Below are positions 15,789 through 54,702 of a stretch of 64,000 nucleotides of DNA, piece after piece. Under the pieces are notes generated by a model, which worked only from the letters and a program-made list of their open reading frames with translations, had not been told where the DNA came from and ran no database searches. The position numbers were made by a program, and so were the translations under genes. Source of the stretch: an uncultured Bacteroidales bacterium (lineage in GTDB: Bacteria; Bacteroidota; Bacteroidia; Bacteroidales; JAAYJT01); NCBI GenBank assembly GCA_964550455.1, contig CAZJZG010000016.1, forward strand, positions 4,960-68,959, read 5' to 3'. Each line of letters starts with the position of its first letter. The stretch's first letter is position 1.

Positions 15789-15821
15789 GTTTGTATATTT
15801 ATTTATTTGAGTTCTGATTAA

Positions 15822-17927: not shown

Positions 17928-17967
17928 TGTATTATATTGTATATCCGGTTTTATTCCTTAGTAAATA

Positions 17968-18435: not shown

Positions 18436-18473
18436 TATTGAAACTACCTTATATTATTATAACTGTCGTTTGT

Positions 18474-19216: not shown

Positions 19217-19468
19217 ATCAATTGCCTCACTATTTTTTTAAAAAATCTTCTAAAAATTTACCATTCAAAAGGATATTATTAGCTAATATGCTGATTTTAT
19301 GTTTATTACAAATTAATGAGGCATTAATAAAAAATGCTTATTCAATTAAAAAAGTGCTTTTTAAGAAAAATCCTTCAAAAAAGTTTTGTGAAATCTAATT
19401 ATAAGGGAGCTAAAACCTGGTTCTAAGCAATGATTTTAACAAAATTTAAAGCCTAAAAGGCTCTAAAA

Positions 19469-38131: not shown

Positions 38132-40618
38132 ATGTTGGATCAAAGATATACAGCCCGGTCAATTGCAAGAACATTAAATGCTAAACTCATTGAAGGAAAT
38201 AATCCTGATACCGGAATTTATCATTTGATAGTTGACAGCCGTAAACCTGTTTCAATTCAGAACGATTTGTTTTTTTCACTCGTAACCCGGCGCAATGATG
38301 GGCATCGCTACATTCAGGAACTTATTGACAAGGGATTACGAAACTTTGTTATAAGTAATTTTGACCCGGCCTGGTCAAAAAGTAATGCATCATTCATTAT
38401 TGTTGATGATACTTTTGAGGCACTCAGGCATCTAACTGAATGGCACAGGCAGCAATTCAATTTTCCTGTCATAGGAATTACCGGCAGTAATGGAAAAACC
38501 ATAATCAAAGAATGGTTGTCGCAACTTATTGGTTCGGACAAACATGTGGTTCGAAGCCCAAAAAGTTATAATTCACAGATCGGTGTACCACTATCTGTCT
38601 GGAAAATTGAATCAATACATGATCTGGGAATTTTTGAAGCCGGAATATCAATGCCTGGTGAAATGGAAAACCTCGAAAATATCATTAAACCAACTCTGGG
38701 TATTTTTGCGAACCTTGGCGCAGCTCATGATGAAAACTTTGAGGATTCAACCCAAAAAGCCAGAGAAAAAATAAAGCTGTTCAGAAATTGTAAAGAACTT
38801 ATCTGTTGCGCTGACCACAGGGAGATCATAAATGTTTACAATCAGCTTGAATGGCCAGAGAAACCAAAATTAATTTCATGGGGGCGATATTCAAAAGCTG
38901 ATCTTAAGATCACGAAATGCGAAAAACATACGGAAAGCACCATTATAAAAGCAGTTTTTAAGAAGAAAAACATCAGTATTGAGGTACCTTTCACTGACGA
39001 GGCTTCACTTGAAAACATCATTCATTGCTGGTTAACCCTGCTTCATCTGGGATATAAAAATGAACTTATCGCTGCACGTATGCTTATGCTGCATACTGTA
39101 GCAATGCGCCTAACACTAAAGGAAGGAATTAATAACTGCTCATTGATTGATGACAGCTACAGTTCCGACCTTTCATCACTTGCAATAGCACTTGATTTTT
39201 TACAACAGCAGAATCAGCACCGCCATAAAACCATAATCCTGTCTGACATATTGCAAAGTGGTCGCAACGAAGAGGATCTATACCTGGAAATAGGGAATCT
39301 GATCAAAAACAAAGATATTGATCGTTTTATAGGAGTTGGAGCTGCATTGCAACGCCAGAAAATCAATTTCCCCAAAGATTCGGTGTTCTATCTGTCAACT
39401 GATGAACTTATAAAAGCATTGCCATCACTAAATTTAATCAACGAGAGTATTCTTGTGAAAGGAGCGCGCGTATTTGGGTTCGAAAAAATAATTGCGTTCC
39501 TGCAGCAGAAAAATCATGAAACCGTTTTAGAAGTCAATCTTGATGCACTGGTCCATAATCTGAACTTCTACCGAAGTAAAATTAAGCCCGGTGTTAAGCT
39601 TATGACTATGGTAAAAGCTTTTTCGTATGGTAGCGGAAGTTTTGAAATTGCCAATGCGTTACAGTTCCATCATGTTGATTATCTGGCAGTTGCTTATGCC
39701 GACGAAGGTGTTGAACTACGAAAAGCAGGTATCAGGCTCCCAGTTATGGTGATGAATCCTGAAGAACAGGGTTATGAGGGCATTTTTAAATATGATCTTG
39801 AACCCGAAATTTACAATCTGCGTACTTTAAGTTTACTGGAACAGGCAGCAAAACAATATTCCGGACATAATCAGGAGGTTCTTAAAATTCATATTAAGCT
39901 TGATACAGGTATGAACCGGCTTGGTTTTGATGAAAACGACCTGCCTGCATTACTTACACGATTAAAGGGATCACGTTTTAAAATTGCTTCGGTATTTTCG
40001 CATCTTGCAGCCAGCGATGATCCAAACCATGATAAATTTACATATGAGCAGATAAATGCTTTCAGCAGAATGACTGAGGAGCTGGAACATAAGCTGGGTT
40101 ATGGTTTTCTGAAACACATCCTGAACACAGCAGGAATAAGTCGTTTTCCTGAAGCACAATATGATATGGTCAGACTTGGAATTGGTCTTTACGGGATCAG
40201 TAATCTTGCTGATGAACAGCCTTTACTGCAGAGTGTCAGTACCCTGAAAAGCAAAATATCACAGATTAAAAATATTCCGGCAGGTTCTACAATTGGTTAT
40301 AATCGCGAATTCAAAGCTGAAAAAAACATACGTATTGCAATTGTACCTGTAGGATATGCCGATGGACTTAAACGAAGCCTCAGCAATGGGAAGTACAGTT
40401 TGCTTGTAAATGGAAAACCCGCACCTATAACAGGAAATATCTGCATGGATATGTGTATGGTTGATATTACCGAAATCAAAGCTGAAGAAGGTGATGAGGT
40501 GATCATTTTTTCACCATCTTATCCCATTAATCAATTGGCTCAGGCTATGCAAACCATTCCCTACGAAGTACTTACAGGAATTTCGCAAAGAGTGAAACGG
40601 GTTTATTATCAGGAATAA
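38132..40618 (+). CDS. murF: bifunctional UDP-MurNAc-tripeptide--D-Ala-D-Ala ligase (MurF) / alanine racemase (Alr) fusion
   Basis: 828 aa. The N-terminal half is Mur ligase (P-loop GITGSNGKTIIKEW, then DDSYSSD). The C-terminal half is alanine racemase (PLP-Lys MVKAFSYGSG, then VRLGIGLYG and GYADG). Confidence 0.9.
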   Translation: MLDQRYTARSIARTLNAKLIEGNNPDTGIYHLIVDSRKPVSIQNDLFFSLVTRRNDGHRYIQELIDKGLRNFVISNFDPAWSKSNASFIIVDDTFEALRHLTEWHRQQFNFPVIGITGSNGKTIIKEWLSQLIGSDKHVVRSPKSYNSQIGVPLSVWKIESIHDLGIFEAGISMPGEMENLENIIKPTLGIFANLGAAHDENFEDSTQKAREKIKLFRNCKELICCADHREIINVYNQLEWPEKPKLISWGRYSKADLKITKCEKHTESTIIKAVFKKKNISIEVPFTDEASLENIIHCWLTLLHLGYKNELIAARMLMLHTVAMRLTLKEGINNCSLIDDSYSSDLSSLAIALDFLQQQNQHRHKTIILSDILQSGRNEEDLYLEIGNLIKNKDIDRFIGVGAALQRQKINFPKDSVFYLSTDELIKALPSLNLINESILVKGARVFGFEKIIAFLQQKNHETVLEVNLDALVHNLNFYRSKIKPGVKLMTMVKAFSYGSGSFEIANALQFHHVDYLAVAYADEGVELRKAGIRLPVMVMNPEEQGYEGIFKYDLEPEIYNLRTLSLLEQAAKQYSGHNQEVLKIHIKLDTGMNRLGFDENDLPALLTRLKGSRFKIASVFSHLAASDDPNHDKFTYEQINAFSRMTEELEHKLGYGFLKHILNTAGISRFPEAQYDMVRLGIGLYGISNLADEQPLLQSVSTLKSKISQIKNIPAGSTIGYNREFKAEKNIRIAIVPVGYADGLKRSLSNGKYSLLVNGKPAPITGNICMDMCMVDITEIKAEEGDEVIIFSPSYPINQLAQAMQTIPYEVLTGISQRVKRVYYQE

Positions 40619-40695: not shown

Positions 40696-42372
40696 TTATT
40701 GCAGTAAATCAGTTGCACTATCAGGTTTTCCCAAATCCATACTTCTAATTTCATTAATGTTTACTCCGTTTAGCGAATCGGAATAAATCAGGTTTACTTC
40801 AGCCAAACCTGTTGAAATAAAAACATCTTTGAGCAGTTCAGAAGAATTTTCATCGTGATGTTTGATTATTGCATGTATGACAGGGTAATCATTAACTAAT
40901 TCAGTAGCAGTATGGGGCTTATCAAACCAACTGAAAAAAAGTGCTTCCTGTTCTTTGAACAGATATGTATCAGGATATATCGAATTGAGTTGTTTGCCAA
41001 ATTTTTTACCTCCTGCCGGAGTCATCAGCATGCCAAACATCAATCCGCCCTCTTTCCTTATATTCCAATTGTCAACAACTATCACCAGAGCATCGGCTTT
41101 GGGCAGCCTGTTCACCTCTTCAGCAACAGCTTTGTTATGGCTTCTGATTTGCTTTCTTATTTCAAGATATTCTTCATGCTGTTTTAGGCTTTTGGGATTT
41201 AATAGCATAACCAAAGCAATTATGCCGTATATAATTGCTTCAGCCCATTTTTTCCTGAACTGAAAAATTTCAAACAAAACATTAACCGAAAGATAGAATA
41301 AAAATACTGTTATCAATGAATAAGGGATCAGATAATAAGGTTCATAATGTTTGGAGATAGCAAGAACTCCAACTACCAGAGCTGTTAAAAATCCGGCAAG
41401 TGAATTTATGAACCTCTTATTGGCAATCCTTTTTCTTATAAAGGGCAATAATGAACAAAGAAGAATGAAAATGGCAATTAATGCAGCATACACCAAATGT
41501 TTTTCTGATTGAATTATAGTTTTTAGATGCAAAACAAATTGCTGTGGATCAATAACTGATGCTTTTCCGCTCCCATGTTTTCCGCTATGTAATACTATTG
41601 AATTTATCCAATTAAAAAACACCTTGCCTCTTTTGATCAAAGGAAATGTAAAAACCAGAAAAGAAATAATTGCTGATGCCAGATAGAAAAGCTTTTTCTT
41701 CATCCCCCTGATTATGAACAGGGGAGCAATAATAAAAGGGAAAAAAGTAAATTTCAGTGAAATCCCTGCACCAATGATGATTCCATATATCAGCGGGCGC
41801 TTGTTTTTAGTTTTGCTATGGTCAAACACTCCATGTATATCAAGTAAAGTGGTTCCACACAGAATAACAACAAGTGCAATAAACCATGGCTCAGGCATGT
41901 ATCGTTCTATTACAGAAAAAACATATTCAGCTACAAAAGGAGAAAACTGTATAAAAATCGCAGCAGGTAAGTTCCCGGTTTTACGGTAAATCCATAAACC
42001 TACAAGAAACACCACAATGGTTATTAAAATTATCATGCTGATATTCAGAGCGCTAAGATATTGATCAGGATTTTGAAGTACATCTTCAGAGTAAGAATAT
42101 GAAGGTCTGAATAAATAAACAATTCGTGTAACAATAGCGGCAAAAATTATCAATGGCGTTCCGGGATGATCAATAAAAAGATTAAAACTCCCCTTACCGA
42201 GCAATATCCCACTTAGTAGATAGCTAAATTCTGGATCAATAGCAAATAATGAGTACTCCTGATTTATTACTCTAAGTGCATAACCAATGAAAAAGATAAA
42301 AAAGGGTATTACTAATAATGAGATCAGGGAAAATATAGTTTTTGCAGGTGGTATTACCCGTTTGAAAAACAT
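40696..42372 (-). CDS. polytopic membrane protein, predicted GT-C-fold glycosyltransferase (ArnT/PMT_2-like) with C-terminal soluble domain
   Basis: 558 aa with about 11-12 TM helices. The first loop has an acidic motif and an HP motif typical of ArnT/PMT-type GT-C enzymes (AIDPEFSYLLSG...FIDHPGTPL). A non-membrane tail of about 170 aa follows. It is divergent from the GT2 gene at 42552. Confidence 0.55.
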   Translation of the reverse strand: MFFKRVIPPAKTIFSLISLLVIPFFIFFIGYALRVINQEYSLFAIDPEFSYLLSGILLGKGSFNLFIDHPGTPLIIFAAIVTRIVYLFRPSYSYSEDVLQNPDQYLSALNISMIILITIVVFLVGLWIYRKTGNLPAAIFIQFSPFVAEYVFSVIERYMPEPWFIALVVILCGTTLLDIHGVFDHSKTKNKRPLIYGIIIGAGISLKFTFFPFIIAPLFIIRGMKKKLFYLASAIISFLVFTFPLIKRGKVFFNWINSIVLHSGKHGSGKASVIDPQQFVLHLKTIIQSEKHLVYAALIAIFILLCSLLPFIRKRIANKRFINSLAGFLTALVVGVLAISKHYEPYYLIPYSLITVFLFYLSVNVLFEIFQFRKKWAEAIIYGIIALVMLLNPKSLKQHEEYLEIRKQIRSHNKAVAEEVNRLPKADALVIVVDNWNIRKEGGLMFGMLMTPAGGKKFGKQLNSIYPDTYLFKEQEALFFSWFDKPHTATELVNDYPVIHAIIKHHDENSSELLKDVFISTGLAEVNLIYSDSLNGVNINEIRSMDLGKPDSATDLLQ

Positions 42373-42418
42373 AGGATGAGTATTATTTTCATAGGTTACG
42401 GCTGATAGATTAAAAGTC

Positions 42419-42426
42419 CAAAGATA
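42419..42426 (-). promoter_or_regulatory. candidate -7 box (TATCTTTG) for the 558-aa GT-C-like gene
   Basis: Plus-strand CAAAGATA equals minus-strand TATCTTTG. It lies 46 nt upstream of the ATG at 42372. Confidence 0.35.
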
Positions 42427-42524
42427 TGTATTAATATAATCAGTTTATGGTATTTAAAAATGTTATTGCAGGTATTATTTCGATAGTATTCGTTTTTGTT
42501 TGATCATACTTCAATTAATCATGC

Positions 42525-42532
42525 TATTTTTG
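42525..42532 (+). promoter_or_regulatory. candidate -7 box (TATTTTTG) for the GT2 / 477-aa membrane protein pair
   Basis: Exact TAnnTTTG match 19 nt upstream of the ATG at 42552. A TTTG lies about 22 nt further upstream (gtTTTGtTTGatc). Confidence 0.4.
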
Positions 42533-42551
42533 CCTTAAATAAACTAATTAT

Positions 42552-43268
42552 ATGCCACTTAAAAAGCTCTCTGTCATTATTCCGGTTTATAACGAAGCCG
42601 CTACTGTTCAGGAATTGTTAAAACGCGTAGTAGAAGTTCAATTACCTCAAAATATCACAAAAGAGCTTGTTGTTGTAAACGACAGCTCTACTGACAACAC
42701 TCTGGAAAAAGTAAATGAGTTCGCACAAAATAACCCAAACGCTGAAATCCATATTTTCAGCCAACAGCCAAATCAAGGAAAAGGAGCAGCATTACACAGA
42801 GGAATTAAGGAGGCCACAGGAGATTATCTGGTTATTCAGGATGCAGATCTTGAATATGATCCGGAAGATTATCTGCTGCTATTAAAGCCGGTTCTTGAAA
42901 AAAATGCCGATGTAGTTTATGGTTCACGATTTCTTCGAGGGAGTCCTCATCGGATTGTAAGATATTGGCATTCAATGGGTAACAAATTCCTGACCTGGCT
43001 TTCAAATATGTTTTCAAACCTTAGTTTAACCGATATGGAAACTTGTTACAAGCTTTTCAGATCGGATATAATTAAGCAAATTCAATTAAAAGAAAAACGT
43101 TTTGGATTTGAACCTGAAGTAACCGCAAAACTGGCAAAAATTAAAAATTTAAAAATTTATGAGACCGGTATTAATTATCATGGCAGATCGTACGAAAGCG
43201 GAAAAAAGATTAACTGGAAAGACGGAGTAAGGGCTATTTATTGTATTCTGAAATATAATCTTTTTTAG
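42552..43268 (+). CDS. GT2 glycosyltransferase, polyprenyl-phosphate sugar synthase type (DPM1/ArnC-like catalytic domain, no TM segment)
   Basis: LSVIIPVYNEAATV, VVVNDSSTDNT, NQGKGAALHRG, VIQDADLEYDPED and METCYKLF. 238 aa. Confidence 0.75.
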   Translation: MPLKKLSVIIPVYNEAATVQELLKRVVEVQLPQNITKELVVVNDSSTDNTLEKVNEFAQNNPNAEIHIFSQQPNQGKGAALHRGIKEATGDYLVIQDADLEYDPEDYLLLLKPVLEKNADVVYGSRFLRGSPHRIVRYWHSMGNKFLTWLSNMFSNLSLTDMETCYKLFRSDIIKQIQLKEKRFGFEPEVTAKLAKIKNLKIYETGINYHGRSYESGKKINWKDGVRAIYCILKYNLF

Positions 43269-43272
43269 ATAT

Positions 43273-44706
43273 ATGTCTTTTTCAGGCAAAAACTACTTTT
43301 CAGGAAATATTGTTGGCATAACCATAGGCATCATTCTTGTTGTAATAGCCTTCACTAATTACAAACATTCCTATTATAATAATTCTGAACGCGTAATTGA
43401 ATGGGATGTTAAATCGTATTATGCCTATCTGCCGGTATTTTTTATTTACCATGATCCCATGCTGAAATTCAGGGACGAAGATCCTGAAAAGTTTGGTAAT
43501 CTGATATGGCCAATTTATCTTGAAACAGGAAAGCCAACAATGGTTTACTCAATAGGAATGTCAGTTTTGTACAGTCCATTCTTTTTTGCAGCCCACGCAG
43601 TAGCCTTATTAACTGATTATGAAGCAGACGGATATAGTACGCCGTATCGTTTTGCCTTAACATTCAGCGCTTTTTTTTATTTATGGATAGGTTTGATATT
43701 TCTTACCAGAATATTACGCAAATACTTTAAGGATAAAATTATCAGCATTGTTTTATTCGTTCTGGTTTTTGGAACCAATATGTATTATTACTCCACTTAC
43801 GAGGCTCCTATGACACATATTGGAAATTTTGCGATGATTACTGCTTTTATATGGCTAACAATCAGATTTTATGAAAAACCTTCGCTAAAAGCTATTATTT
43901 TACCGGGCTTATTAGCCGGACTTATTGTACTGGTACGTCCGAGCAATATCATTGTGCTGGTTTTGTTTTTTTTATGGGATATTAAAAGCTTCAACGAATT
44001 CAAAAATCGTATCTTATTTTTTCTGAATCGCTCTCACTGGGTGGCATTAATGGCATTTTTGTTTATATTGGTTTGGGTTCCTCAGTTTGTTTATTGGCAT
44101 TGGGTATCGGGAAAAATATTTTTCAATGCATATACTCTTCGTAATGAAACCTTCTCATTTGACAATCCGCAGATATTCAATATTTTATTCAGTTACCGCA
44201 AAGGATGGCTTATTTATACACCTTTGATGATACTATCAATTGCCGGAATTTTTCTTTTACCCCGCCGAATTCCCGGATTATTGTTTTCGCTGGTGCTATT
44301 TAGTGTTCTGAACATTTATATTCTATCTTCATGGTGGTCGTGGTGGTATGGAGGAAGTTTCGGATTGCGTTCATTCATTGATTCATACGGATTAATGGCT
44401 ATACCGTTAGCATGTCTTACCGAATTTGTACTTCAAAAAAAGAAACTTTTCAAATATGCTTATTTAACCCTTATTATATTGATACTTTCGCTTAATCAGT
44501 TTCAAACATGGCAATATAAGAATGGATTAATACACTTTGATGCCATGAATAAAGCAACATACTGGGAGATCTTTCTCAGAACCCATGGAACTGAACGTTA
44601 TTGGAATATACTTGAAGAATCAAAAGCTGAATATCTTAAAACTGATACTGAAAATGCTGAAAAAACCAGAATGAAACGGGAAGCAAAAAATAACGCAAAA
44701 ATCTGA
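43273..44706 (+). CDS. polytopic membrane protein, unassigned family (GT-C-like candidate), paralogue of 48550-50400
   Basis: 477 aa with about 11 TM helices. The first loop is EWDVKSYYAYLPVFFIYHD. Blocks shared with the 616-aa protein are GYSTPY, LVRPSN, FSYRKGWLIYTP and SSWWSWWYGGSFGLRSFID. It starts 4 nt after the GT2 stop. Confidence 0.5.
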   Translation: MSFSGKNYFSGNIVGITIGIILVVIAFTNYKHSYYNNSERVIEWDVKSYYAYLPVFFIYHDPMLKFRDEDPEKFGNLIWPIYLETGKPTMVYSIGMSVLYSPFFFAAHAVALLTDYEADGYSTPYRFALTFSAFFYLWIGLIFLTRILRKYFKDKIISIVLFVLVFGTNMYYYSTYEAPMTHIGNFAMITAFIWLTIRFYEKPSLKAIILPGLLAGLIVLVRPSNIIVLVLFFLWDIKSFNEFKNRILFFLNRSHWVALMAFLFILVWVPQFVYWHWVSGKIFFNAYTLRNETFSFDNPQIFNILFSYRKGWLIYTPLMILSIAGIFLLPRRIPGLLFSLVLFSVLNIYILSSWWSWWYGGSFGLRSFIDSYGLMAIPLACLTEFVLQKKKLFKYAYLTLIILILSLNQFQTWQYKNGLIHFDAMNKATYWEIFLRTHGTERYWNILEESKAEYLKTDTENAEKTRMKREAKNNAKI

Positions 44707-44746
44707 TTATCAATTTATTATTAAAATATATACAACTAATATTATT

Positions 44747-45907
44747 TTACTCGCTTTTATTCATAAAAAGGTTGACCATTTCTCTGCCAACATTATCCCA
44801 ACCCAGATTATTCAGCACAAAATCCTTACCTGCCAGCCCTATACTTTTTCTTAAAGAAATATCTGATAATACAGTAGAAACCTTTTCTGTAACCTCAGTA
44901 ACGTTTTTACCTGCAAAAATGAAATTCTGCATATCTTTCAGCAATGTTTTTCCAAAAAGGTTTTCAGGAACGTTTGAAATGCACGGAATACCCAGGGTCA
45001 TTGCTTCAATGGTGGCGGTACCCAACCCAACATATTCGCCTGAAAGCATCATCCAGTGTATTACTGATTTTTTTAATTCTTCAATTACTGTTTCGTGCGG
45101 CGCTTCACCAATAAAATCAACTTTATCCCTGATACCCAATTGTTGGGCTAATTTTAGAGGCGACTGGATATAAACATGACCGATTATTTTCAAGCGAAGA
45201 TTTGGAAACCTGTCAAGCAGTTCTTTGAAAACTTTAAGATTAAAAAGGTAATCACGCTGACTGATTATCGCACCAATACCAATGATTTGATCAATTTTTG
45301 AATAATCGTGATTGTAATTTTTAGTTTGTGATTCATTTACATTGCTGCCAAAAGGAATGATAACCGATTTTTCTGATATTTTTTTTCTTTGAACCTCCCT
45401 GATATAGCGGTCAATCTCAATATCCCATGAAATAATATTCTTACTGAAAGGGAAAATAAGCCGCCCGCATATAAGCCTATCCATTAAGCGTAAAACTTTG
45501 TTTTTAAACGGATTCAGCGATTGCATCTGAGTTCCCACTGAAATATAAAGTGGTTTTTTAGTTTTAACTGATGCATAAATTGCAGGAAATGCAATGTCGA
45601 GATAATGATTGACCAACAGTATAACATCTGCATTACATTCATTTGCAAGTTTTATCATTTTCAAATAATTTCCCGGAAAAACCGAACTGAAACGCAGATG
45701 CTTGAAAAAATTCTTAAGGTTAATATGTATAGCATTAAGCCGATGAACAGTAAAAGGGAAATCTTCAGTTAATTTATCTTTGTTTTTAACTGTTGCCACC
45801 ACTACATTATGCCCCTGTTTGTGTAATATTCCGGCAAGATTTTTTGAATAAAATGATGTTCCGGTTCTGATAGGCGGGAACATAGCAGTAACAATTAAGA
45901 TATTCAT
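44747..45907 (-). CDS. GT4 (GT-B fold, group 1) glycosyltransferase
   Basis: N-terminus MNILIVTAMFPPIRTGTSFYSKNLAGILHKQGHNVVV. The C-terminal EX7E-type block is SGEYVGLGTATIEAMTLGIPCIS. Confidence 0.8.
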   Translation of the reverse strand: MNILIVTAMFPPIRTGTSFYSKNLAGILHKQGHNVVVATVKNKDKLTEDFPFTVHRLNAIHINLKNFFKHLRFSSVFPGNYLKMIKLANECNADVILLVNHYLDIAFPAIYASVKTKKPLYISVGTQMQSLNPFKNKVLRLMDRLICGRLIFPFSKNIISWDIEIDRYIREVQRKKISEKSVIIPFGSNVNESQTKNYNHDYSKIDQIIGIGAIISQRDYLFNLKVFKELLDRFPNLRLKIIGHVYIQSPLKLAQQLGIRDKVDFIGEAPHETVIEELKKSVIHWMMLSGEYVGLGTATIEAMTLGIPCISNVPENLFGKTLLKDMQNFIFAGKNVTEVTEKVSTVLSDISLRKSIGLAGKDFVLNNLGWDNVGREMVNLFMNKSE

Positions 45908-45909
45908 TG

Positions 45910-46428
45910 TTATTTTCTGATTTTTATAGTTTTAGCAGGTACTCCGGCTACCACATGATAATCCGGAACATCAGAAGTTACTACTGCACCTGCACCAATC
46001 TGAACACCTTTTCCAATATGAACCCCCGGTAAAATAACAGCGCCGGTTCCAATATCAGCATCATCATCAATAATTACCTTTTTGAAAACCAGCTTACTGT
46101 GAAGTATTGGTATATTAATACCCTCTTCGTCATGCATTGATGTAATAATTTTAACTCCAGGGCCAATTCCTACGTTTTTGCCAATATTTATACCACCGGC
46201 ACTATGAAAAAAGCATTGCTGCCCTATCCATGTTCCATCGCCAATGATAAATTCATTTTTATAATATGCCTTCAAAATTGTTTGATGCCCTATATAAATA
46301 TTATTTCCAAGAGAAATATTTTCAGGATGAAATACCATTACTCCATTTTCGAATATTACATTCTCGCCTATTTTCTTAAATTGGTTTTTTGCAAACGAGC
46401 CATCACCATGTGATTTATAAATTTTCAT
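45910..46428 (-). CDS. left-handed beta-helix (hexapeptide repeat) acyl/acetyltransferase
   Basis: Hexapeptide repeats are visible (IGKNVGIGPGVKI..., IDDDADIGTGAVILPGVHIGKGVQIGAGAVVTSDVP). It overlaps the upstream aminotransferase gene by 14 nt. N- versus O-acyl specificity cannot be decided from sequence. Confidence 0.8.
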   Translation of the reverse strand: MKIYKSHGDGSFAKNQFKKIGENVIFENGVMVFHPENISLGNNIYIGHQTILKAYYKNEFIIGDGTWIGQQCFFHSAGGINIGKNVGIGPGVKIITSMHDEEGINIPILHSKLVFKKVIIDDDADIGTGAVILPGVHIGKGVQIGAGAVVTSDVPDYHVVAGVPAKTIKIRK

Positions 46429-47539
46429 TTCCCAGTATCTTTATAAGTTTTTCTGAAACTCTTTTTAAATCTTCAGCATCAAGCTGATTGTATAATGGCA
46501 AAACCAGACCCTGATTATAGGCTTTCATAGCATTAGGAAACAATTTCTGACAATCAAGCCTGTATTTTTTCTGGAAATATTCCTGAAAAGGCATACACTG
46601 TGCGCCCAGGTTTGTTACAATATTTTCCGCTTTAAGCTTTTTAATTATCTGATCACGATTTGCAGGAACCAGAATATGATAAGACTGCCAGGTATGATTT
46701 TTCTTGTCTGGCAGGAATGGCAACTGAATTGCAGGAACATTTTTCAGTTGTTCAAAATAAATGTCGGCTAACATATTCCTATACCCCAGAATCTGTTCAA
46801 ACCGCTGAAACTGGCTATTTACAAATGCAGCCTGAAAATCAGTCATTCTGTAATTAAAACCAGCTTCCACGAATTCAGTTTTCTCATTACTAAAACTTAT
46901 ACCATGATTTCGCAGAATCCTGAACTTTTCAGCAAGCTTATCATTATTTGTAACCAGCATACCACCTTCGCCGCTTGTTATAGCCTTTCGCGGATGAAAT
47001 GAGAATGAAGCAATCTCTCCAAAAGAGCCTGCATATTTTCCGTTTTCTTTAGCCCCCAACGCACAGGCAGCATCTTCTATCACAATCAGATTATATTTTG
47101 ATGCAATTTCACATATTTCAGTAATGTTGCATGCCATCCCAAATTCATGAACAGGCATTATTGCTCTGGTTTTTCGTGTTATTGCCTCCTCAATTTTACT
47201 TACATCTATGTTTAATGTTTTAATATCTATATCCACAAATACTGGTCTGGCTCCTGTCAGTTCAATCACATTGGCAGTTGCCATGAATGAAAATGCCGGT
47301 ACTATAACCTCATCGCCTGTTCCTATACCTGATGCAAGCAAAGCAATATGTAGTGTTGCTGTTCCACTTGAAGCTGCAACAGCATGTTTCACTCCAAGAT
47401 ATCCGGCAATATTTTTTTCAAGTTCTTCGACTTTTTGTCCCTGAACAAGCATACCTGTTTTTAATACCTCAACCACAGCATCAATATCCTGCTGCTGAAT
47501 ATCGGGGATCATCAAAGGTATAAAACCGGATCTTTTCAT
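46415..47539 (-). CDS. DegT/DnrJ/EryC1/StrS-family sugar aminotransferase (ArnB-like)
   Basis: The PLP-lysine block is SFSFHPRKAITSGEGG (E. coli ArnB, as I recall it, has SFHAIKNITCAEGG). Also present are SGTATLHIAL and DEVIVPAFSF. Confidence 0.85.
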   Translation of the reverse strand: MKRSGFIPLMIPDIQQQDIDAVVEVLKTGMLVQGQKVEELEKNIAGYLGVKHAVAASSGTATLHIALLASGIGTGDEVIVPAFSFMATANVIELTGARPVFVDIDIKTLNIDVSKIEEAITRKTRAIMPVHEFGMACNITEICEIASKYNLIVIEDAACALGAKENGKYAGSFGEIASFSFHPRKAITSGEGGMLVTNNDKLAEKFRILRNHGISFSNEKTEFVEAGFNYRMTDFQAAFVNSQFQRFEQILGYRNMLADIYFEQLKNVPAIQLPFLPDKKNHTWQSYHILVPANRDQIIKKLKAENIVTNLGAQCMPFQEYFQKKYRLDCQKLFPNAMKAYNQGLVLPLYNQLDAEDLKRVSEKLIKILGNENL

Positions 47540-48496
47540 TTAATAATCAATGGATTTAAAATATTCTGCAGTTTTTAATATTCCTTCATCCAGGTCAATT
47601 TTGGCTTTGAATCCAAGGATTTTTTCAGCTTTTTGTACTGATGGAATTCGCAATTCAATATCGGCTGAAAGCTGGGGTCGAAACAGGATTTTTGATTTTG
47701 AATTTAACACTCGGCAAACGGTTTGCGCTAATCCAAGGGTTGTAATTACGGCTCTTGCATTGCCAAGGTTAAAGCTTTCACCTATAGCTTTAGGATCTTC
47801 GATACAATGGATCAAACAATCAACAAAATCATCAACGTAACACCAGGCACGAATTTGTGTACCATCGCCATTGATATATATATCCTGATCTTTAAGGGCT
47901 CTTTTTATAAAAACCTGTATAGCTCCTTCACCGGTTTGTCCTGGTCCGTAAACATTAAAAGGGCGTACCGTAACCGCAGGAAGCTTATATTGCTTATAAT
48001 ATGCATGGGTGAGATGCTCGCCGGCAAGTTTGCTTACAGCATAAACCCAGCGTGCCTCACCGGCAGAACCTGCAACCGTATTGCTTTCTTCAGTTGATTT
48101 ATATGCCATTGAACCAAAAATTTCAGAAGTGGAAAAATCAACAAAACGGTCTTTTACCTGATTGATCATTGCAGCTTCAAGAGCATTGGCAGTGCCAATC
48201 ATATTTACAGTCATGGTTTTTACCGGATTTATTATCACTGTGTCAATCCCTGCAATGCCTGCAGCATGTACCACTATATCAGCACCTTTCATTGATGCTA
48301 TTAAAAGCTCTTTGTCGAGCACATCACCCCTGATTATTTTCAGATTGGGATGGCTGGCATAATTACTTCCTGACAAAGTATCGCGGTGAAAATTATCATA
48401 AGCAGTGATCTTGTTATTCTCAATCATATGCATAATGATTGAATTGGCTATAAACCCTGCCCCGCCGGTAATAAAAACATTTTTGTTTTTTATCAT
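47540..48496 (-). CDS. extended SDR, ArnA-C-terminal/UDP-glucuronate decarboxylase-like NAD-dependent enzyme
   Basis: Rossmann motif [12 protein letters not shown]. The catalytic blocks are FSTSEIFG and [15 protein letters not shown]. The E. coli ArnA decarboxylase domain, recalled from memory, has PSTSEVYG and [21 protein letters not shown] compares with RPFNWMGP. Confidence 0.65.
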
Positions 48497-48549
48497 ATAT
48501 TTTAACTATTCTGAAATATCATTAAATAACTAACCTGAATAATTACGTT

Positions 48550-50400
48550 TTAGTTTTCACAAAACAGATACAAAGTAAAATCATCCAGATAAACAGTGTT
48601 CTGAAAAGGGTTGTAAAGGTAGAAAAAAACGGTATCACCGGACATGAAATAAAAACCTTCAGTATGAACAAGATAAAGTCTGTTCCATTGATCTGCAAAA
48701 TGATTATATGTTCTGGAAGTTGATTGCTGGCTATGAACCACTTGCCCATCTCTCCATATCTCAAGTACAAATAAAAGTTCTTTTTTTATCGGGTTTGACA
48801 CTGGGCGGACAAAAACCTGAGACAATAAGGCTATTTTCTGCATTGAAAGCGAATCGGGAATTTGAAAACGAATCAAAGTACTGTATTCCTGTTCTGCCGG
48901 AATACTTGCCGAGAAAATCCCTGTATGCGCCATGCCACGGGCTGGTATAATATTTTCCCTTTCGTTTTGCTCCTCAAAACCAATATTATAACTGGCTTTG
49001 GTTACTGGAAATTCGTTGTTAAGGTTTGTAAGGGTGTACTGATATTTTTCTTCTTCCCAAAAAAGACCCATATAAGGTTCTGTGGTATGGAGAAAAACAC
49101 GCCAATACTTGTCTTTATCCATTTTCCAATAAAAAATGTAGTTTTTATACTGTTTCATGTAAATATGGTTCAAACCAATACACATGAGAGCAACAACCAT
49201 TAAAAAATTAAGGGCAAAATTATTTCTGATATGCTGTATGCCAAAAGCAATAGAAATAAAAAACAACGGGTAATAATCAATAAAAGCCCTATGTCCGAAC
49301 GACATTCCATACCACCAGTTCCACCAGGAAGCTATAACATATGTGGGCACTGCTATTGATATCAACAGCCAAAATAGAAAGTATCTGTTATTCTTAAATA
49401 GTGGCCAAATCCCGAAAATGAAAAAAATCAATATCGGTGCATAAATAAAAAGTCCTTTTTCGTAACTAAATAAAACATTTGTAATTTCAGGGTTTAAAAA
49501 ATTAAATGAACCGCCCTGATATGACCAGACAAAAAAGCTGCCTGTTTGTAAATAATAAATTAATGGCTGAAGAAACAGAACAAACAACATAATAAAGAGC
49601 GCAGGCAGTACTTTGAGAAAATTGATTACAAGCCATCTAAAAAATCTTATTGTTTCCTTTCCCGATCCTGCAATCATGGGTATAATAAATATCATTACTA
49701 CATTTGTAGGTCTTATCAAACCAAGCAATCCAAGTGTAATAAACCATATATAAAGATATTTCAATTGGTAGGTTTGAAAGAACCGCTGCACGTAAAGCAT
49801 GAAAACAGCAAAAAGAGACATAGTATAAACATGCGTAAACGAAGGCTCATCAACGGTATAATAAAAAGTGGAAGTAGCAAAGGTCATCAGCAACAAACAA
49901 ACTGAAATGATCCATGGTTTGATCTTCAGGTTCTCAAGAAACCTTCCAAAAGCCCATAAACCCAGTATAAGGTACGCAATTGCAGATATAAGGATAGCAA
50001 CCTGATATGGTGTTGAATAGCCGCTGGCTTCAGCCGGTCCAATCAATGCAATTATATGTGCTGTAAGAAATGCTGGCACCCAAAGGATAGAAACCCCCAA
50101 ATAAGCAATGTTTACAACACCCTTATCAGTATTTATCCTGAACTCATAAATATTTCCGGTATGCGGTGCTCCGCTGTTTTTTACTTCATCAATAAATGAG
50201 AATTGAAGATCTTTGTAGATAAAAACTGCCGGCAAATGTGCATAATATGCATGCCCATCGCTGGTAATATAAGTTTTTTTAAAAGGTTGACGATGAACTG
50301 AAGCAATTGCAAGGATAAAAAAAATCACAATTAGCATCCACCGCCAGTTCGATTTAAAAAAGGCAAAACCAAAAATTAAGGAACCCTTTTTGTCAGTCAT
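48550..50400 (-). CDS. polytopic membrane protein, unassigned family (GT-C-like candidate) with C-terminal beta-rich soluble domain; paralogue of 43273-44706
   Basis: 616 aa. Blocks shared with the 477-aa protein are YYAHLPAVFIYKD, GYSTPY, LIRPTN, FSYEKGLFIYAP and ASWWNWWYGMSFGHRAFID. An extra non-membrane tail of about 170 aa ends in NTVYLDDFTLYLF. Confidence 0.5.
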   Translation of the reverse strand: MTDKKGSLIFGFAFFKSNWRWMLIVIFFILAIASVHRQPFKKTYITSDGHAYYAHLPAVFIYKDLQFSFIDEVKNSGAPHTGNIYEFRINTDKGVVNIAYLGVSILWVPAFLTAHIIALIGPAEASGYSTPYQVAILISAIAYLILGLWAFGRFLENLKIKPWIISVCLLLMTFATSTFYYTVDEPSFTHVYTMSLFAVFMLYVQRFFQTYQLKYLYIWFITLGLLGLIRPTNVVMIFIIPMIAGSGKETIRFFRWLVINFLKVLPALFIMLFVLFLQPLIYYLQTGSFFVWSYQGGSFNFLNPEITNVLFSYEKGLFIYAPILIFFIFGIWPLFKNNRYFLFWLLISIAVPTYVIASWWNWWYGMSFGHRAFIDYYPLFFISIAFGIQHIRNNFALNFLMVVALMCIGLNHIYMKQYKNYIFYWKMDKDKYWRVFLHTTEPYMGLFWEEEKYQYTLTNLNNEFPVTKASYNIGFEEQNERENIIPARGMAHTGIFSASIPAEQEYSTLIRFQIPDSLSMQKIALLSQVFVRPVSNPIKKELLFVLEIWRDGQVVHSQQSTSRTYNHFADQWNRLYLVHTEGFYFMSGDTVFFYLYNPFQNTVYLDDFTLYLFCEN

Positions 50401-50415: not shown

Positions 50416-53400
50416 TTACTGCAATCCTAACATTATTTTCTTCACACAGCTATGTTCTCCACTGATAATCCATATAAAATAAACACCTGACTTAAAATCA
50501 GTATTAATAATATTAGAAGAACTATTTAAATCAGTGCTTAAAATCAATCTGCCGGTCAGATCAAAAATATTTAATATCCCGGATGTACCATCAGGCATTT
50601 TAACAATTAACGAATTGCCGGATAAATAAACAGAAATAATTTCAGGCTCATCCTCTTTAACCAAACTGATAAAACTAAAACTTATATCATCAAGCCTTAT
50701 TTTAGGAGCCGAACCTGATTCACCACTAATGAAATAATACCTCCAGAGCAGTTGAACATATTCTTTGTCAAGCAATTCTTCAGGAAAAGCAATATCTTCA
50801 TATTGAGTTGTATGTCCGTTATATGAAGCTAAATACTCTACAGGCTGTCCATTTAACATAAAATCGCTGAAAGGTTCTTCAATATTTGTCCGGTATTGCA
50901 ATCGTAATACATATATTTTCTGATCCTGAGCAAGTGTTCCGGCAAGCCAGCTTATAGTAGCTGTTGTAATATCTCTTGTATCAACAGCAAACAAAACCCC
51001 GCCCAAATCACGATTACAACCTGCATTGATGAATGAGATACCATCATAACCAAGTCCGTTTATTCGTGTTCCGGCAGTATTTCTATACGGAAATCCGATA
51101 TTTTCATGATCATCAGGGTGATAATCATCATGAGAGATGAAATAGGGAAATAATAATGGGCTATCCAGATCGGGATCCTGGGAATCGCTCTGTAAAAACA
51201 TCATGTGAGGAGGATATGAATACTCTGGTTCGTCAGGACTCCATGAAGTAAATGTATAATTACCACGGCTATACTTAAAGGCTTCCGGATAAATAAGAAT
51301 TCTGAACGTATTTGAAACCACAGTGTTAAACCCATCAAAGGCGCTAAGGGTAATAATAGCTTCTCCACATTGCAAAGGTATTATATTGAGTTTATTATCT
51401 TCTAAAAAAAGATTGATAAACTGCTCATTATCAGCAGAAGCCATAAATATCAAAGAATCGTTGTCAGGATCTTCAAATACCTGATTGAAATCAATCAGCA
51501 AAGATTCTCCATTTTCAATAAGTGATTGAAACTCAACAGGATTAGCTACTACAGGGGGCAGATTAGGAGCTTGAATTGGTATCCCATCCAAACTAAAGTT
51601 ATTAAACGTAACTCTGTTACCCTGATTAGCCGACATATTTGAACCACCAAAACGAAATCGGATCTTAAAATCATGATTATCATTAATAGAATTAATCGCA
51701 CTTAAATTTATTTCAAAAAGCTGATACAAAGTGCTTAAAATCAGTGTGTCATAAGGTGGATTGAGCGGAAACCATTCAGGTTCGCCTGAATTTACTGAAT
51801 ATTCGGATAATAAATAATCTGCAGCGTTTTCATCTTTAGCAGCAAATCGGAAAATCAGGTTTTTATATCCCACTGATGGCAAATGGAAAGTTATGATATT
51901 TTCGCCGGCATCACCGGTAAATGGTTGCTTAATCTGCAATCCCCTCATATTTGAAGCAGGATACTGAACCCCGTTATTTCCCTCCGGACTATAATTTATG
52001 TCGGTAGGAGCATTTCGACGTTCCATCGAAGCTTTTCGCCAGTTGGGATGACCAGAATAAAACGGATAACCCTGTAGTGAAGAATGGTAACTGATTATTC
52101 CGTTTCCCGGAAGCTTATATCTTGGATTTACTACTTCCAAAGGATAATCATTAGGAAGAGTTGTATCAAAAACCCAGAAATATAAAAGCTGTGGTTCAAC
52201 GGCTTTAATAAAATGAGCTTTTACACTTATATTTCCTTCAGGAATGAGAATTGCAACAGCCGGAGTATTAGTTGGTAATCCTTCCCAATGACTAAAAGCA
52301 TATCCCGGCAAAGCAACTGCCTCAATCTCAATTGGGATATCTTTAAAATATATTCCTGTCCATGGATATGGAATTGAATCTACACCCGGTGTTTTATCTG
52401 TAATATTTATTGTGTTTATATGAACGTAACCGGCATTTGAATTATTTATATCCAGTGTAATATCAATATCGCTCTCAATATCAAAATACTCTCTGATATG
52501 CTGACGTTGAAAATCAGGTCTTAATATTGCAAAATCACGCATTTCATCTAAGAACCACCACCATGTTGAAATATCAGGATAAGTGTTCCAGCGCAAAAGA
52601 TGTTCCTGTATTTCAGGCGCAATTCTGTTGCTATTTTCATTAATGAATTCAACAACCCTTGCCGGCAAAAAGTAAGTATTCATTAAATCGGCAAAGCGAT
52701 TGATGAACCTGGTTTTGAACTCTTCATTCTCAAGAAATTTTCTTAATAGAAATGTTGACCAATCAGGATTCGGATAAGAGGTTCCTCCCACCAAGGTAGC
52801 ATGATCAAGCATATTATAACTTGCGTTCTGACTACCACTTGACAACCCGAAACTAAAATCCATATCATAAAGCATCCATCGCCATCTTCCATCATGTCCA
52901 ATAGGTGCGCCGGGTATATAATTCTGAGTTCTGAGCCTCCAATATTCAAGGTTAGCACCAGGCCAGTCAATATTATTGGCAAATATATTTGTTATCTGAT
53001 AATCAGTGAAGTTATCAACATCAATTCTTGTTTTAATATACTGATAATGAACATCTTCAATCAGTCCGTTAGCTTCAATATAATTAATAGTCTGACGATA
53101 ATGCACAGTATCACCTTCTTTAATTTCGTTGACAGAAAGAAAGTCAATATTTTCAGGATCAACACCGTAAACTCTTTCAAAATAATGCTTGTCGTAGCGT
53201 TCCCTGATATTATGAATTCCCCAGTATTCACCATTTATAAAGACTATAACAGGTTCATACTCTTGAATATCAAAGAGTAAGCCTTTTACAAGTGTTTGCA
53301 CAGTTGCATCGCGAAGCATAGTACTAAGAAAATCCTGCCCTGAGTTACGCAACAACAAGCGCTTGAAACTATTGTCATCAAGATTAGTAAAAAACTTGTG

Positions 53401-54702
53401 TTCAAGTTCTGATTTCCCATATTTCCCACGGGCGTATAATCTTAATGATTTCATGGGTCTGCGCCGGGCTTCACTGCCATGGATACGTATTCCTATTTCC
53501 TGAGATATTCTGGGTAAAGTAAAGTATGGATCATAAAATTCAATATGAGAAGGAATCTCCCATTCCTCTCCGCTGCGATCAAAATTACATTTTGTATACC
53601 ATGTATTGCTTACTGTAGGGTTAGCTGTCCTCCAGTTATCATAATCAATTCCGGCAACATAAATACCGTCTTCATAATCAAATAATTTCTGCTCGGGAAT
53701 ACTGATAGAAATAACCGGAAGACTGTAGCGATTCTGAGCTTCATCAGTGATAAAATAGGTATTTGTTTGAACCCTGCTCGATAATGCTCCGGGCTTCAAT
53801 GCCCGTGCCCTGACTACAGTACCTTTAAAAACCGGATTTTCAGGTAAATAATATGGAGACTGATGCCAGGTGGATGAAATCTGAGTGAGGCTGTCAGGGT
53901 ATGATGAGCGATCAGCAATCGTAATCGTTTCATCATTCAAAAATGACCGATATGAACCGGCTAACAGTTCCCCAAAAGGGTCTCCTGGATTCTCAGGATA
54001 TTGGTTTTTATAAGTATAAATGGTTCCTTCGAGGTTGTCAATATCAGGGTTAGAACCATCAAGGGTATAAACTATTACAACCGCTGTATCGGGATGACTT
54101 AAATCAAGTGTAAAACCGTCAGTATAAAATCCTCCGTGATGTGAAAAAGCGGGAGGCTCAAGAATTTCGTTATATGTTTGTGTGGTATTTGCTGTTCCTG
54201 GTGTTGGTTCATCAAAAAAATAATAAGCACCCGTTCCATCAGGTGATCTTCCGTATGAAACATCGGATTGTAGAGTTACAGGCTGAATAATGCTTATTGC
54301 TGAACCGGAAGGATTAGTTAATATAACCTGTTCGCCCTCAGCCTTAATACTAAAATTGGTATGTAAAGGAGCATCGGGGTTGGTGCGGTTCTTCCCGGAT
54401 GTCCACACTATAAGATATTCACCGGGCTGAATTATAATATCAGGAAAAACCCATTTAAAAGGCTGACCGGCTTTATCGGAAAGTCCAAAATCGTCCAGAC
54501 CAACAGTTGTTGTTCCAAAATTGTAAATTTCAATCCAGTCTTCATAATCACCATCTTCATCAGCAATAATTGAAGAATTGGACGACATTAATTCATTAAT
54601 TGTTATGCTTTGTGCATTAGCCTGATAAACAACAAAATATGCCAATATAATCAGGATAACAAAGAACAACTTGTAACCAAAGGACAAAATTATCTTTTTC
54701 AC
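50416..54702 (-). CDS. large secreted multidomain protein: lamin-tail domain + CHB_HEX_C-like + CotH kinase-like domain + beta-sandwich/cadherin-like modules + T9SS C-terminal sorting domain
   Basis: Signal peptide MKKIILSFGYKLFFVILIILAYFVVYQANAQ. LTD, about aa 32-165: ITINELMSSNS...DWIEIYNFG...GEYLIVW. CHB_HEX_C-like: GGFYTDGFTLDL...VIVYTLDGSNP. CotH-like, about aa 325-720: IEFYDP...GIRIHGSEARRRPMKSLRLYARGKYG...LLLRNSGQDF...VIVFINGEYWGIHNIRERYD. Cadherin-like: FEDPDNDSLIF. The last 74 aa or so (nt 50419-50640) are T9SS-CTD-like: ILNIFDLTGRLIL...SGVYFIWIISGEHSCVKKIML. Confidence 0.75.
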   Translation of the reverse strand: MKKIILSFGYKLFFVILIILAYFVVYQANAQSITINELMSSNSSIIADEDGDYEDWIEIYNFGTTTVGLDDFGLSDKAGQPFKWVFPDIIIQPGEYLIVWTSGKNRTNPDAPLHTNFSIKAEGEQVILTNPSGSAISIIQPVTLQSDVSYGRSPDGTGAYYFFDEPTPGTANTTQTYNEILEPPAFSHHGGFYTDGFTLDLSHPDTAVVIVYTLDGSNPDIDNLEGTIYTYKNQYPENPGDPFGELLAGSYRSFLNDETITIADRSSYPDSLTQISSTWHQSPYYLPENPVFKGTVVRARALKPGALSSRVQTNTYFITDEAQNRYSLPVISISIPEQKLFDYEDGIYVAGIDYDNWRTANPTVSNTWYTKCNFDRSGEEWEIPSHIEFYDPYFTLPRISQEIGIRIHGSEARRRPMKSLRLYARGKYGKSELEHKFFTNLDDNSFKRLLLRNSGQDFLSTMLRDATVQTLVKGLLFDIQEYEPVIVFINGEYWGIHNIRERYDKHYFERVYGVDPENIDFLSVNEIKEGDTVHYRQTINYIEANGLIEDVHYQYIKTRIDVDNFTDYQITNIFANNIDWPGANLEYWRLRTQNYIPGAPIGHDGRWRWMLYDMDFSFGLSSGSQNASYNMLDHATLVGGTSYPNPDWSTFLLRKFLENEEFKTRFINRFADLMNTYFLPARVVEFINENSNRIAPEIQEHLLRWNTYPDISTWWWFLDEMRDFAILRPDFQRQHIREYFDIESDIDITLDINNSNAGYVHINTINITDKTPGVDSIPYPWTGIYFKDIPIEIEAVALPGYAFSHWEGLPTNTPAVAILIPEGNISVKAHFIKAVEPQLLYFWVFDTTLPNDYPLEVVNPRYKLPGNGIISYHSSLQGYPFYSGHPNWRKASMERRNAPTDINYSPEGNNGVQYPASNMRGLQIKQPFTGDAGENIITFHLPSVGYKNLIFRFAAKDENAADYLLSEYSVNSGEPEWFPLNPPYDTLILSTLYQLFEINLSAINSINDNHDFKIRFRFGGSNMSANQGNRVTFNNFSLDGIPIQAPNLPPVVANPVEFQSLIENGESLLIDFNQVFEDPDNDSLIFMASADNEQFINLFLEDNKLNIIPLQCGEAIITLSAFDGFNTVVSNTFRILIYPEAFKYSRGNYTFTSWSPDEPEYSYPPHMMFLQSDSQDPDLDSPLLFPYFISHDDYHPDDHENIGFPYRNTAGTRINGLGYDGISFINAGCNRDLGGVLFAVDTRDITTATISWLAGTLAQDQKIYVLRLQYRTNIEEPFSDFMLNGQPVEYLASYNGHTTQYEDIAFPEELLDKEYVQLLWRYYFISGESGSAPKIRLDDISFSFISLVKEDEPEIISVYLSGNSLIVKMPDGTSGILNIFDLTGRLILSTDLNSSSNIINTDFKSGVYFIWIISGEHSCVKKIMLGLQ

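Follow-up and report, generated by a model that had tools for sequence, protein, structure and literature searches.

A 64,000-nucleotide stretch of DNA from an uncultured Bacteroidales bacterium (GenBank assembly GCA_964550455.1, contig CAZJZG010000016.1, positions 4,960 to 68,959 of the forward strand; hereafter the window) carries, at 40696..50400, eight adjacent genes for three polytopic membrane proteins (A, B and C), a short family 2 glycosyltransferase (GT2), a family 4 glycosyltransferase (GT4) and a sugar cassette made up of a short-chain dehydrogenase/reductase (SDR) of the extended type, a DegT aminotransferase and a left-handed beta-helix (LbH) acyltransferase. On balance, the evidence favours reading this locus as one version of a variable envelope-glycosylation island that follows the principle of a lipid-linked monosaccharide donor plus a GT-C transferase, and into which an amino-pentose cassette has been inserted with GT4 as its consumer. 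A sequence-only reading made before this analysis had described the same genes as an Arn-like lipid-carrier aminosugar module coupled to three GT-C-type membrane proteins. The eight open reading frames (ORFs) were found at the coordinates and on the strands that it gave, including the 14-nt overlap between the LbH (45910-46428) and DegT (46415-47539) genes. They are listed below with the intergenic region that separates the two divergent transcription units (lengths of proteins in amino acids, aa).

40696..42372, minus strand: protein A, 558 aa, predicted GT-C fold with a C-terminal alpha/beta domain.
42373..42551: AT-rich divergent intergenic region of 179 bp between A and the GT2-B operon, with presumed promoters in both directions.
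42552..43268, plus strand: GT2, short and soluble, 238 aa, by homology a polyprenyl-phosphate sugar synthase of the DPM1/GtrB/ArnC kind; the core gene conserved in the island.
43273..44706, plus strand: protein B, 477 aa, predicted GT-C fold, paralogue of C.
44747..45907, minus strand: GT4, 386 aa, soluble GT-B enzyme and final gene of the minus-strand operon, a proposed user of the uridine diphosphate (UDP)-sugar.
45910..46428, minus strand: LbH acyltransferase, 172 aa, proposed amino-pentose 4-N-acetyltransferase.
46415..47539, minus strand: DegT pyridoxal phosphate-dependent aminotransferase, 374 aa, proposed to act at C4 of a UDP-4-keto-pentose.
47540..48496, minus strand: extended SDR, 318 aa, proposed nicotinamide adenine dinucleotide-dependent UDP-hexuronate C4-oxidase/decarboxylase.
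48550..50400, minus strand: protein C, 616 aa, predicted GT-C paralogue of B, which heads the cassette operon.

AlphaFold2 models were obtained for A (predicted local distance difference test score, 87.8; predicted template modelling score, 0.87) and B (91.8 and 0.91, respectively) and were compared with known structures by Foldseek. The top match of A was ArnT with bound undecaprenyl phosphate (5F15; E = 1.5e-4, probability 1.0), followed by ALG9, ALG12, Pmt4, DPY19 and Pmt1/2. For B, the first 29 matches in the PDB were all GT-C proteins (PglB, 7.7e-5; STT3, ALG12, AglB, ArnT, EmbA/B, Pmt4, AftA and ALG6), to which its sequence is 10-15% identical. B and C, which had been proposed to be paralogues, proved to be so (34% identity over 434 aa, E = 2e-59), and C differs in an additional, unannotated domain of about 150 aa at its C terminus. 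In both families an invariant aspartate lies just past the predicted first transmembrane (TM) segment (D45 in B/C, D46 in A). Invariant residues of the B/C family further include Y49, Y50, R222, W354, W357 and W358; in the A family, P70 and G71 are invariant and the PGTP motif is invariant or nearly so, within a loop-1 signature of D-P-x-x-x-Y-L ... P-G-T-P. Crude hydropathy predicted about 10 TM-like segments in A, at least 7 in B and at least 8 in C. From the models of A and B, the paralogy of C to B and the invariant D46 and D45, the three proteins are assigned by modelling as GT-C-fold glycosyltransferases with a conserved first-loop acidic residue, as had been anticipated.

The earlier description of A as ArnT/PMT_2-like held at the level of the fold, but not at that of family membership. 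Neither Pfam nor NCBIfam gave a match to A, Pfam gave none to B or C, and membership of the three window proteins in PMT_2, PMT, YfhO or any other Pfam family was rejected; the C-terminal domains of C and A had no credible Pfam match even at E <= 1. Among relatives, PMT_2 (PF13231) was matched at E <= 0.01 by 4 of 50 B/C-family members and by none of 21 A-family members. B and C scored 46.7 and 24.9 bits, respectively, against NCBIfam LA_3751/LA_3752 (NF047440, cut-off 200), below the threshold and in the manner of distant relatives. Some A-family relatives showed a marginal GT87 match (20-26 bits), which window A itself did not. A distant paralogy of A to B/C was ruled out (BLAST E > 0.07; hhalign probability 1%). 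The B/C family comprises at least 1332 proteins, nearly all annotated as hypothetical. An exhaustive profile search returned 2526 cluster representatives of the A family (E <= 1e-3), 1368 of them reaching E <= 1e-30, overturning the impression from a word-indexed search (25 proteins) that this family is very rare. Neither family has a characterised member. In the A family, forms of about 695 aa bear a CBM_4_9 module, a hint that their acceptors may be glycans. One 607-aa A-family protein (P0272, on a 2.1-kb JGI contig) has a precomputed match to Por_Secre_tail; such a sorting domain is unexpected in a polytopic protein of the inner membrane, and two genes may have been fused in the gene call.

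Gene neighbourhoods were surveyed from two sides, using 80 reference-genome loci from five phyla with SDRs 73-99% identical (L009-L088) and 79 metagenome loci holding B/C-family genes, 42 of which were at least 10 kb long. On the SDR side, DegT was adjacent in 74 of the 80 loci, and relatives of GT2 were present in 6, of B in 3, of C in 3, of GT4 in 2 and of A in 1. The usual neighbours were Wzx-type Polysacc_synt (28 loci), Wzt (20), Wzm (17), Gfo/Idh/MocA oxidoreductases (30) and sugar dehydrogenases; that is, the SDR-DegT cassette normally resides in ordinary Wzx or ABC-transporter polysaccharide loci. On the GT-C side, the 42 long loci had a GT2 nearby in 30 cases, two or more B/C copies in 10, the class A penicillin-binding protein (PBP1a) in 7, the MurF-alanine racemase (MurF-Alr) fusion in 4 and an A-like gene in 4; SDR, DegT, LbH and GT4 occurred in none of them. 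GT2 together with GT-C genes is the unit that is generally conserved. According to the gene tables, the interval from PBP1a to MurF-Alr is a variable island in which the short GT2 and several GT-C genes are always present and the accessory genes vary.

The complete arrangement was recovered in the same order in L090, where protein identities were 54% for A, 56% for B, 62% for C, 79% for GT2, 75% for GT4, 81% for LbH, 63% for DegT and 92% for SDR. The set is also kept in L009, which represents the same species, and in L010, the closest different relative (SDR 91%, C 71% and GT4 52% identical). Co-occurrence, which was to be checked across Bacteroidota, was thus found in one Bacteroidales clade, where it is kept down to about 55% identity, and is not general; the cassette is a lineage-specific insertion. 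A second, differently ordered association was found in L012. There, one compact operon runs from SDR-DegT-LbH into a genuine LPG_synthase_TM gene (143 bits) and then a GT2 of 314 aa with two TM helices at its C terminus; on the flanks of this operon are two A-like genes and, separately, a short GT2-B pair. In Tenuifilum thalassicum and two further genomes, distant homologues of B likewise have a TM-anchored GT2 and an LPG_synthase_TM gene as neighbours, in the order B-GT2-LPG_synthase_TM. LPG_synthase_TM (PF03706) was seen beside GT2 and GT-C genes in L006, L007, L008, L012, L089 and L100, and this recurrence is consistent with a role as lipid-phosphate-sugar flippase in GT2/GT-C systems. GtrA, SMR, MATE and LPG_synthase_TM proteins were all absent from the window locus.

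GT2 (Pfam Glycos_transf_2, E = 2.8e-33) had its best PDB relatives in the dolichol-phosphate-mannose synthase of Pyrococcus (5MLZ; 1.4e-21, full length), GtrB (5EKP), PcManGT (6YV7) and ArnC (9HWJ/9BHC/8VXH). Polyprenyl-phosphate glycosyltransferases account for all nine of its best solved relatives, in agreement with the type assigned to it beforehand. By hydropathy, no TM segment was found in GT2 or GT4; GT2 is without the TM anchor of its solved relatives and in this resembles the short forms represented by DPM1 and PpgS-type enzymes. Its start-to-stop neighbour on the plus strand is B, whose start follows the GT2 stop by 4 nt. Orthologues of GT2 with 58-64% identity were present in 15 of the 79 metagenome B/C loci, and these 15 were cassette-less, which argues that the sugar loaded by GT2 is a common one and not the amino-pentose, contrary to what had been proposed, and makes GT4 the better candidate user of the cassette.

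GT4 was assigned by Pfam to Glycos_transf_1 (E = 7.3e-17), and it had no sequence match among solved structures in the PDB. In L090 and in L010 the cassette operon still ends with GT4, even where the N-acylation genes differ. Since GT2 is about 60% conserved where the cassette is lacking, L012 has a dedicated GT2 and flippase-like gene, and GT4 stays with the cassette, GT4 is the likeliest consumer of UDP-acetamido-pentose in the window; most likely, GT4 rather than the short GT2 uses this sugar nucleotide.

The families that had been named for the soluble enzymes were also returned by Pfam (Glycos_transf_2, Glycos_transf_1 for GT4, Hexapep, DegT_DnrJ_EryC1 and Epimerase), and the quoted motifs are present in the sequences (FSTSEIFG and RWVYAVSK in the SDR; DPEFSY...DHPGTP in loop 1 of A). 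STSE and YAVSK of the SDR align to STSE and YDEGK of human UXS; the motif is T-S-E, not the T-D-E of the RmlB type. T-S-E is also found in GDP-mannose dehydratases. Against the PDB, the SDR scored 444 bits with 8VR2, 125 with human UXS, 95-115 with RmlB and 72 with ArnA. By cluster membership, 8VR2 is ABE74400.1 of Psychrobacter cryohalolentis K5, and the window SDR (by tblastn) and DegT are 61% and 44% identical, respectively, to genes of P. cryohalolentis. DegT (Pfam DegT_DnrJ_EryC1, E = 4.3e-117) had its best PDB match in 8VR3/8VR5 (293 bits), above ArnB (198 bits). LbH (Hexapep, E = 1.5e-12) is nearest to LbH proteins of the WcaF/maltose-O-acetyltransferase type, and its orthologues (56-81% identity) stand directly after SDR-DegT in 13 other loci, some of them with full WbpB/E/D sets.

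In P. cryohalolentis, the gene order is Wza-Wzb-Wzc, PglF-like, UDP-sugar 6-dehydrogenase, Gfo/Idh/MocA oxidoreductase, LbH, DegT, SDR (8VR2), DegT and LbH, then Wzx and others; SDR-DegT-LbH here come after the WbpA/B/D/E route, which leads to UDP-2,3-diacetamido-glucuronic acid. A passage of PMC8040287 citing Kondakova 2012 gives 2,3,4-triacetamido-2,3,4-trideoxy-L-arabinose as a constituent of the K5 O-antigen. The uronic acid can be turned into the triacetamido-pentose only by C4 oxidation and decarboxylation, C4 amination and N-acetylation, and for this reason we infer that the 8VR2-type SDR is a decarboxylase. Orthology of the window SDR to 8VR2 supports, by context only, a decarboxylase activity and a 4-acetamido-pentose product, and the N-acylated 4-amino-pentose named in the sequence-only reading is the likely product. 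Moreover, in L016, L017, L018, L021 and L024, SDRs 79-82% identical to that of the window have orthologues of WbpB, WbpE or WbpA as immediate neighbours, so that the substrate in the window is probably the same diacetamido-uronic acid. The earlier comparison of the SDR with the decarboxylase half of ArnA stands in so far as the T-S-E motif is of the UXS/ArnA type and an orthologue occurs where a uronate decarboxylase is needed, but the closer of the two enzymes is UXS.

The N-acyl group appears to be a variable feature of the cassette product, given that formyltransferases adjoin the cassette in 9 of the 80 reference-genome loci and that the acylation gene is replaced in L010. There (12065-16269), the acetyltransferase slot is occupied by a 337-aa protein without known family, a 295-aa LbH protein, an AMP-binding ligase and a FabG-like reductase, which suggests that the L010 amino-pentose carries a longer or hydroxylated N-acyl group. 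The SDR is 73-92% identical across Bacteroidota, Acidobacteriota (Pyrinomonadaceae, Chloracidobacterium), Desulfobacterota (Desulfobacteraceae), Verrucomicrobiota (Verrucomicrobiales) and Armatimonadota, and the adjacent DegT is much less conserved (43-74%); the difference suggests horizontal spread of the cassette or a very strong constraint on the SDR.

From these assignments the following scheme is proposed. Gene order, families, folds, orthology and neighbourhood counts are observed; the enzymatic activities, the sugars, the division of work between GT2 and GT4 and the acceptors are inferred. At the cytoplasmic face, the short GT2 would take its sugar from a common nucleotide sugar and attach it to undecaprenyl phosphate, and the lipid-phosphate-sugar would be flipped by a flippase encoded outside the locus. 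B, C and A would then transfer it to extracytoplasmic acceptors, most likely glycans, with GT2 supplying the donor to B and probably also to C and A. In the cytoplasm, the SDR would oxidatively decarboxylate a UDP-hexuronic acid, most likely UDP-2,3-diacetamido-2,3-dideoxy-glucuronic acid supplied by Wbp enzymes whose genes lie elsewhere, to a UDP-4-keto-pentose, which DegT would aminate at C4 and LbH would N-acetylate to give a UDP-4-acetamido-4-deoxy-pentose of the triacetamido-L-arabinose type. GT4 would add this amino-pentose, still in the cytoplasm, to a lipid-linked or lipopolysaccharide (LPS)-core glycan, and the same glycan may receive the periplasmic decoration.

Several observations weigh against this scheme. 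Although 8VR2 and then UXS are the best-scoring structures for the SDR and its motif is T-S-E, NCBIfam ranks the dTDP-glucose dehydratase (RmlB) model above the UXS-type model, both below the cut-off, so that the grouping with decarboxylases that had been expected is borne out by the structures and the motif but not by this ranking. LbH is not of the 8VR6 type, which it matches weakly (38 bits) as a member of a different subfamily. Genes for WbpA/B/D/E, ugd or a flippase were not found within the 64-kb window. The substrate of GT4 was assigned from gene position alone. Finally, C heads the cassette operon, in a slot that in cassette-less relatives holds a membrane-anchored GT2 and a flippase-like gene.

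The position of C at the operon head means that the cassette product could be the donor for C, as had been proposed, and it bears on a possible but less probable Arn-like route, in which the short GT2 or another enzyme puts the amino-pentose on undecaprenyl phosphate and, after flipping, A, B and/or C pass it to the acceptor. The amino-pentose itself would then be what is added in the periplasm. On their shared strand, C is 53 nt upstream of the SDR, the slot past a C-like gene holds a membrane GT2 and a flippase-like gene in cassette-less relatives, ArnC is among the solved relatives of GT2, and L012 displays such a logic outright, with the cassette joined to LPG_synthase_TM and a TM-anchored GT2 and with GT-C genes adjoining. 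The window, however, is without the TM-anchored GT2 and the flippase-like gene of L012, and its slot after the cassette is filled by GT4. The sole GT2 of the window is the one whose orthologues in cassette-free loci imply a common donor sugar, and the cassette usually feeds cytoplasmic Wzx/Wzy or ABC-transporter pathways.

That last habit of the cassette would also be expected if SDR-DegT-LbH-GT4 served a conventional cytoplasmic LPS or capsule pathway and had merely landed in a GT2/GT-C island with unrelated targets. Such a juxtaposition agrees with the Polysacc_synt, Wzt and Wzm counts given above, with the absence of the cassette from all 42 long B/C-family loci and with the character of the PBP1a to MurF-Alr interval as a hot spot for variable genes. 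It is nevertheless unlikely: the same eight genes in the same order in L090, at 54-92% protein identity, are not a chance arrangement, and the persistence of the arrangement to about 55% identity together with the independently arisen association in L012 with GT-C, GT2 and flippase-like genes makes chance juxtaposition less likely. The arrangement also outlasts the swap of acylation genes in L010, and C shares its strand with the cassette, with gaps of at most 53 nt.

A true Arn-type modification of lipid A conferring resistance to cationic peptides is highly improbable: although ArnT is the top structural match of A and ArnB and ArnC are among the sub-threshold NCBIfam matches, every Arn threshold tested failed (score/cut-off: ArnB NF008658, 288/631; ArnC NF007986, 65/529; ArnA NF005998, 81/777), by which a true Arn system was ruled out, there are three GT-C enzymes rather than one, no deformylase or deacetylase is present, so that the sugar would stay N-acetylated and uncharged, and the CBM_4_9 module of long A-family members suggests glycan acceptors. 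The Arn label was thus too specific, no protein reaching any Arn or PMT_2 threshold, and an N-acetylated sugar without a deacetylase would not yield cationic lipid A of the Arn type. What had been said of missing components was correct: formyltransferase, ArnD, ArnE/F and ugd genes are absent from the locus, which has no spare small ORF able to encode a flippase.

As a periplasmic glycosylation system, the island is closest in principle to three-component systems, which consist of a lipid-phosphate-sugar synthase, a flippase and a GT-C transferase (PMC11127046). In the examples compared (GtrA/GtrB/Gtr*, Citrobacter ORF12-15/GT136, CsbB/GtcA/YfhO and PpgS/Rv3779; PMC11127046), a GT2 polyprenyl-phosphate sugar synthase likewise stands next to GT-C transferases, which are variable and of which several may occur per locus. 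The window has the charging enzyme, as judged by homology, and GT-C enzymes with an acidic residue after the first TM segment; a flippase is not encoded in its locus, although relatives of the locus carry flippase-like genes. It differs further in the number of its GT-C enzymes, three, which fall into two sequence families that are unrelated to each other and absent from Pfam and NCBIfam, and in having a short GT2 without TM anchor, an embedded nucleotide-sugar cassette with GT4, and a location outside any recognisable O-antigen or capsule locus. The cassette has its nearest counterpart in the late pathway of P. cryohalolentis K5 (8VR2 SDR, 8VR3/8VR5 aminotransferase and 8VR6 acetyltransferase), with which it shares the SDR-DegT-LbH order and the T-S-E motif, but its LbH belongs to another subfamily, WbpA/B/D/E are absent from the window, and its neighbours are GT-C, GT2 and GT4 genes in place of Wza/Wzb/Wzc/Wzx.

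The Arn system (PmrHFIJKLM) has a similar logic of UDP-uronate decarboxylation, C4 amination and N-acylation, possibly also of GT2 plus GT-C; in contrast to it, the window SDR is a single-domain protein nearer to UXS than to ArnA, formyltransferase, ArnD and ArnE/F are lacking, and GT4 is extra. In the mycobacterial GT-C network that uses decaprenyl-phosphate-sugars (PimE/GT87, EmbA/B/C and AftA-D), one lipid-phosphate-sugar synthase may serve several GT-C enzymes and some GT-C members bear CBM modules, and the marginal GT87 matches of some A-family members recall it. The window differs from this network in showing no evidence of polymer assembly and no GT87 likeness in its own A.

Each component of the locus is thus of a known kind, and what has not been described is their combination, the two GT-C sequence families, the clustering of three GT-C genes in a variable island between PBP1a and MurF-Alr, the wiring of the cassette to them and the target. 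The island provides both GT-C families with a genomic context and a testable donor hypothesis. A 4-acylamido-pentose cassette of the rare Psychrobacter type is widespread and highly conserved, and in at least two lineages it is tied to lipid-carrier and GT-C machinery, not to Wzx/Wzy or ABC-transporter pathways. Identification of the acceptor would enlarge the known envelope modifications of Bacteroidota by a new one, the principle itself being already established. More speculatively, and with little confidence, the several GT-C enzymes of the island could work in the periplasm as a line for assembly or decoration, in which one polyprenyl-phosphate-sugar synthase feeds GT-C enzymes of two families and, in this lineage, a triacylamido-pentose pathway has been recruited, by analogy with mycobacterial arabinan/lipoarabinomannan synthesis or the extension of glycans in the lumen of the endoplasmic reticulum. 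Such a line would make a glycan or glycoconjugate of the envelope that has not been described and that may sit on cargo of the type IX secretion system (T9SS), such as the CotH protein encoded next to C, or on structures associated with peptidoglycan.

The genes that flank the eight-gene locus were identified by Pfam as follows.

38132..40618, plus strand: MurF-Alr fusion, a single 828-aa ORF (Mur_ligase_M, Ala_racemase_N, Ala_racemase_C), one flank of the island.
50416..54702, minus strand: 1428-aa protein with CotH kinase-like and lamin-tail (LTD) domains and, at its C terminus, a T9SS sorting domain (CotH, 2.8e-45; LTD, 2.9e-15; Por_Secre_tail, 8.5e-5).
54737..57088, minus strand: PBP1a (Transgly, Transpeptidase), the opposite flank.

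The MurF-Alr fusion also flanks the island in L089, L090, L104, L121 and L149, and GldH is among the housekeeping genes on the CotH/PBP1a side. The CotH gene lies 15 nt upstream of C, with which it is probably co-transcribed; the CotH protein adjoins C in L009, L010 and L090 and the short GT2 in L167, and a functional link to the island, for example as glycosylated T9SS cargo, is possible.

Promoter and terminator scans of the locus were uninformative: 45 sigma-70 consensus sites were counted against 47.1 expected, Bacteroidota using other promoters, and counts of intrinsic terminators matched the shuffled expectation. TAnnTTTG-like elements were noticed by eye alone on both strands of 42373..42551.

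Two other loci showed features of their own. In L104, the B homologue and the short GT2 are separated by a row of five ORFs of 478-543 aa (6663-14359); BLAST matched none of them to A, B or C, a Pfam scan of one gave no match, and they may be further divergent polytopic transferases. In L089 (2842-3844), an Epimerase-family gene next to LPG_synthase_TM and GT2 is broken into ORFs of 76, 145 and 122 aa, by pseudogene formation or an assembly frameshift. Elsewhere in the window, the minus strand of 549-19894 contains many short ORFs and one of 701 aa (15822-17927) and looks like a ribosomal-protein/EF-G operon. The metagenome-assembled genome JBASHR01 is 99% identical to this DNA, and the organism recurs across many metagenomes.

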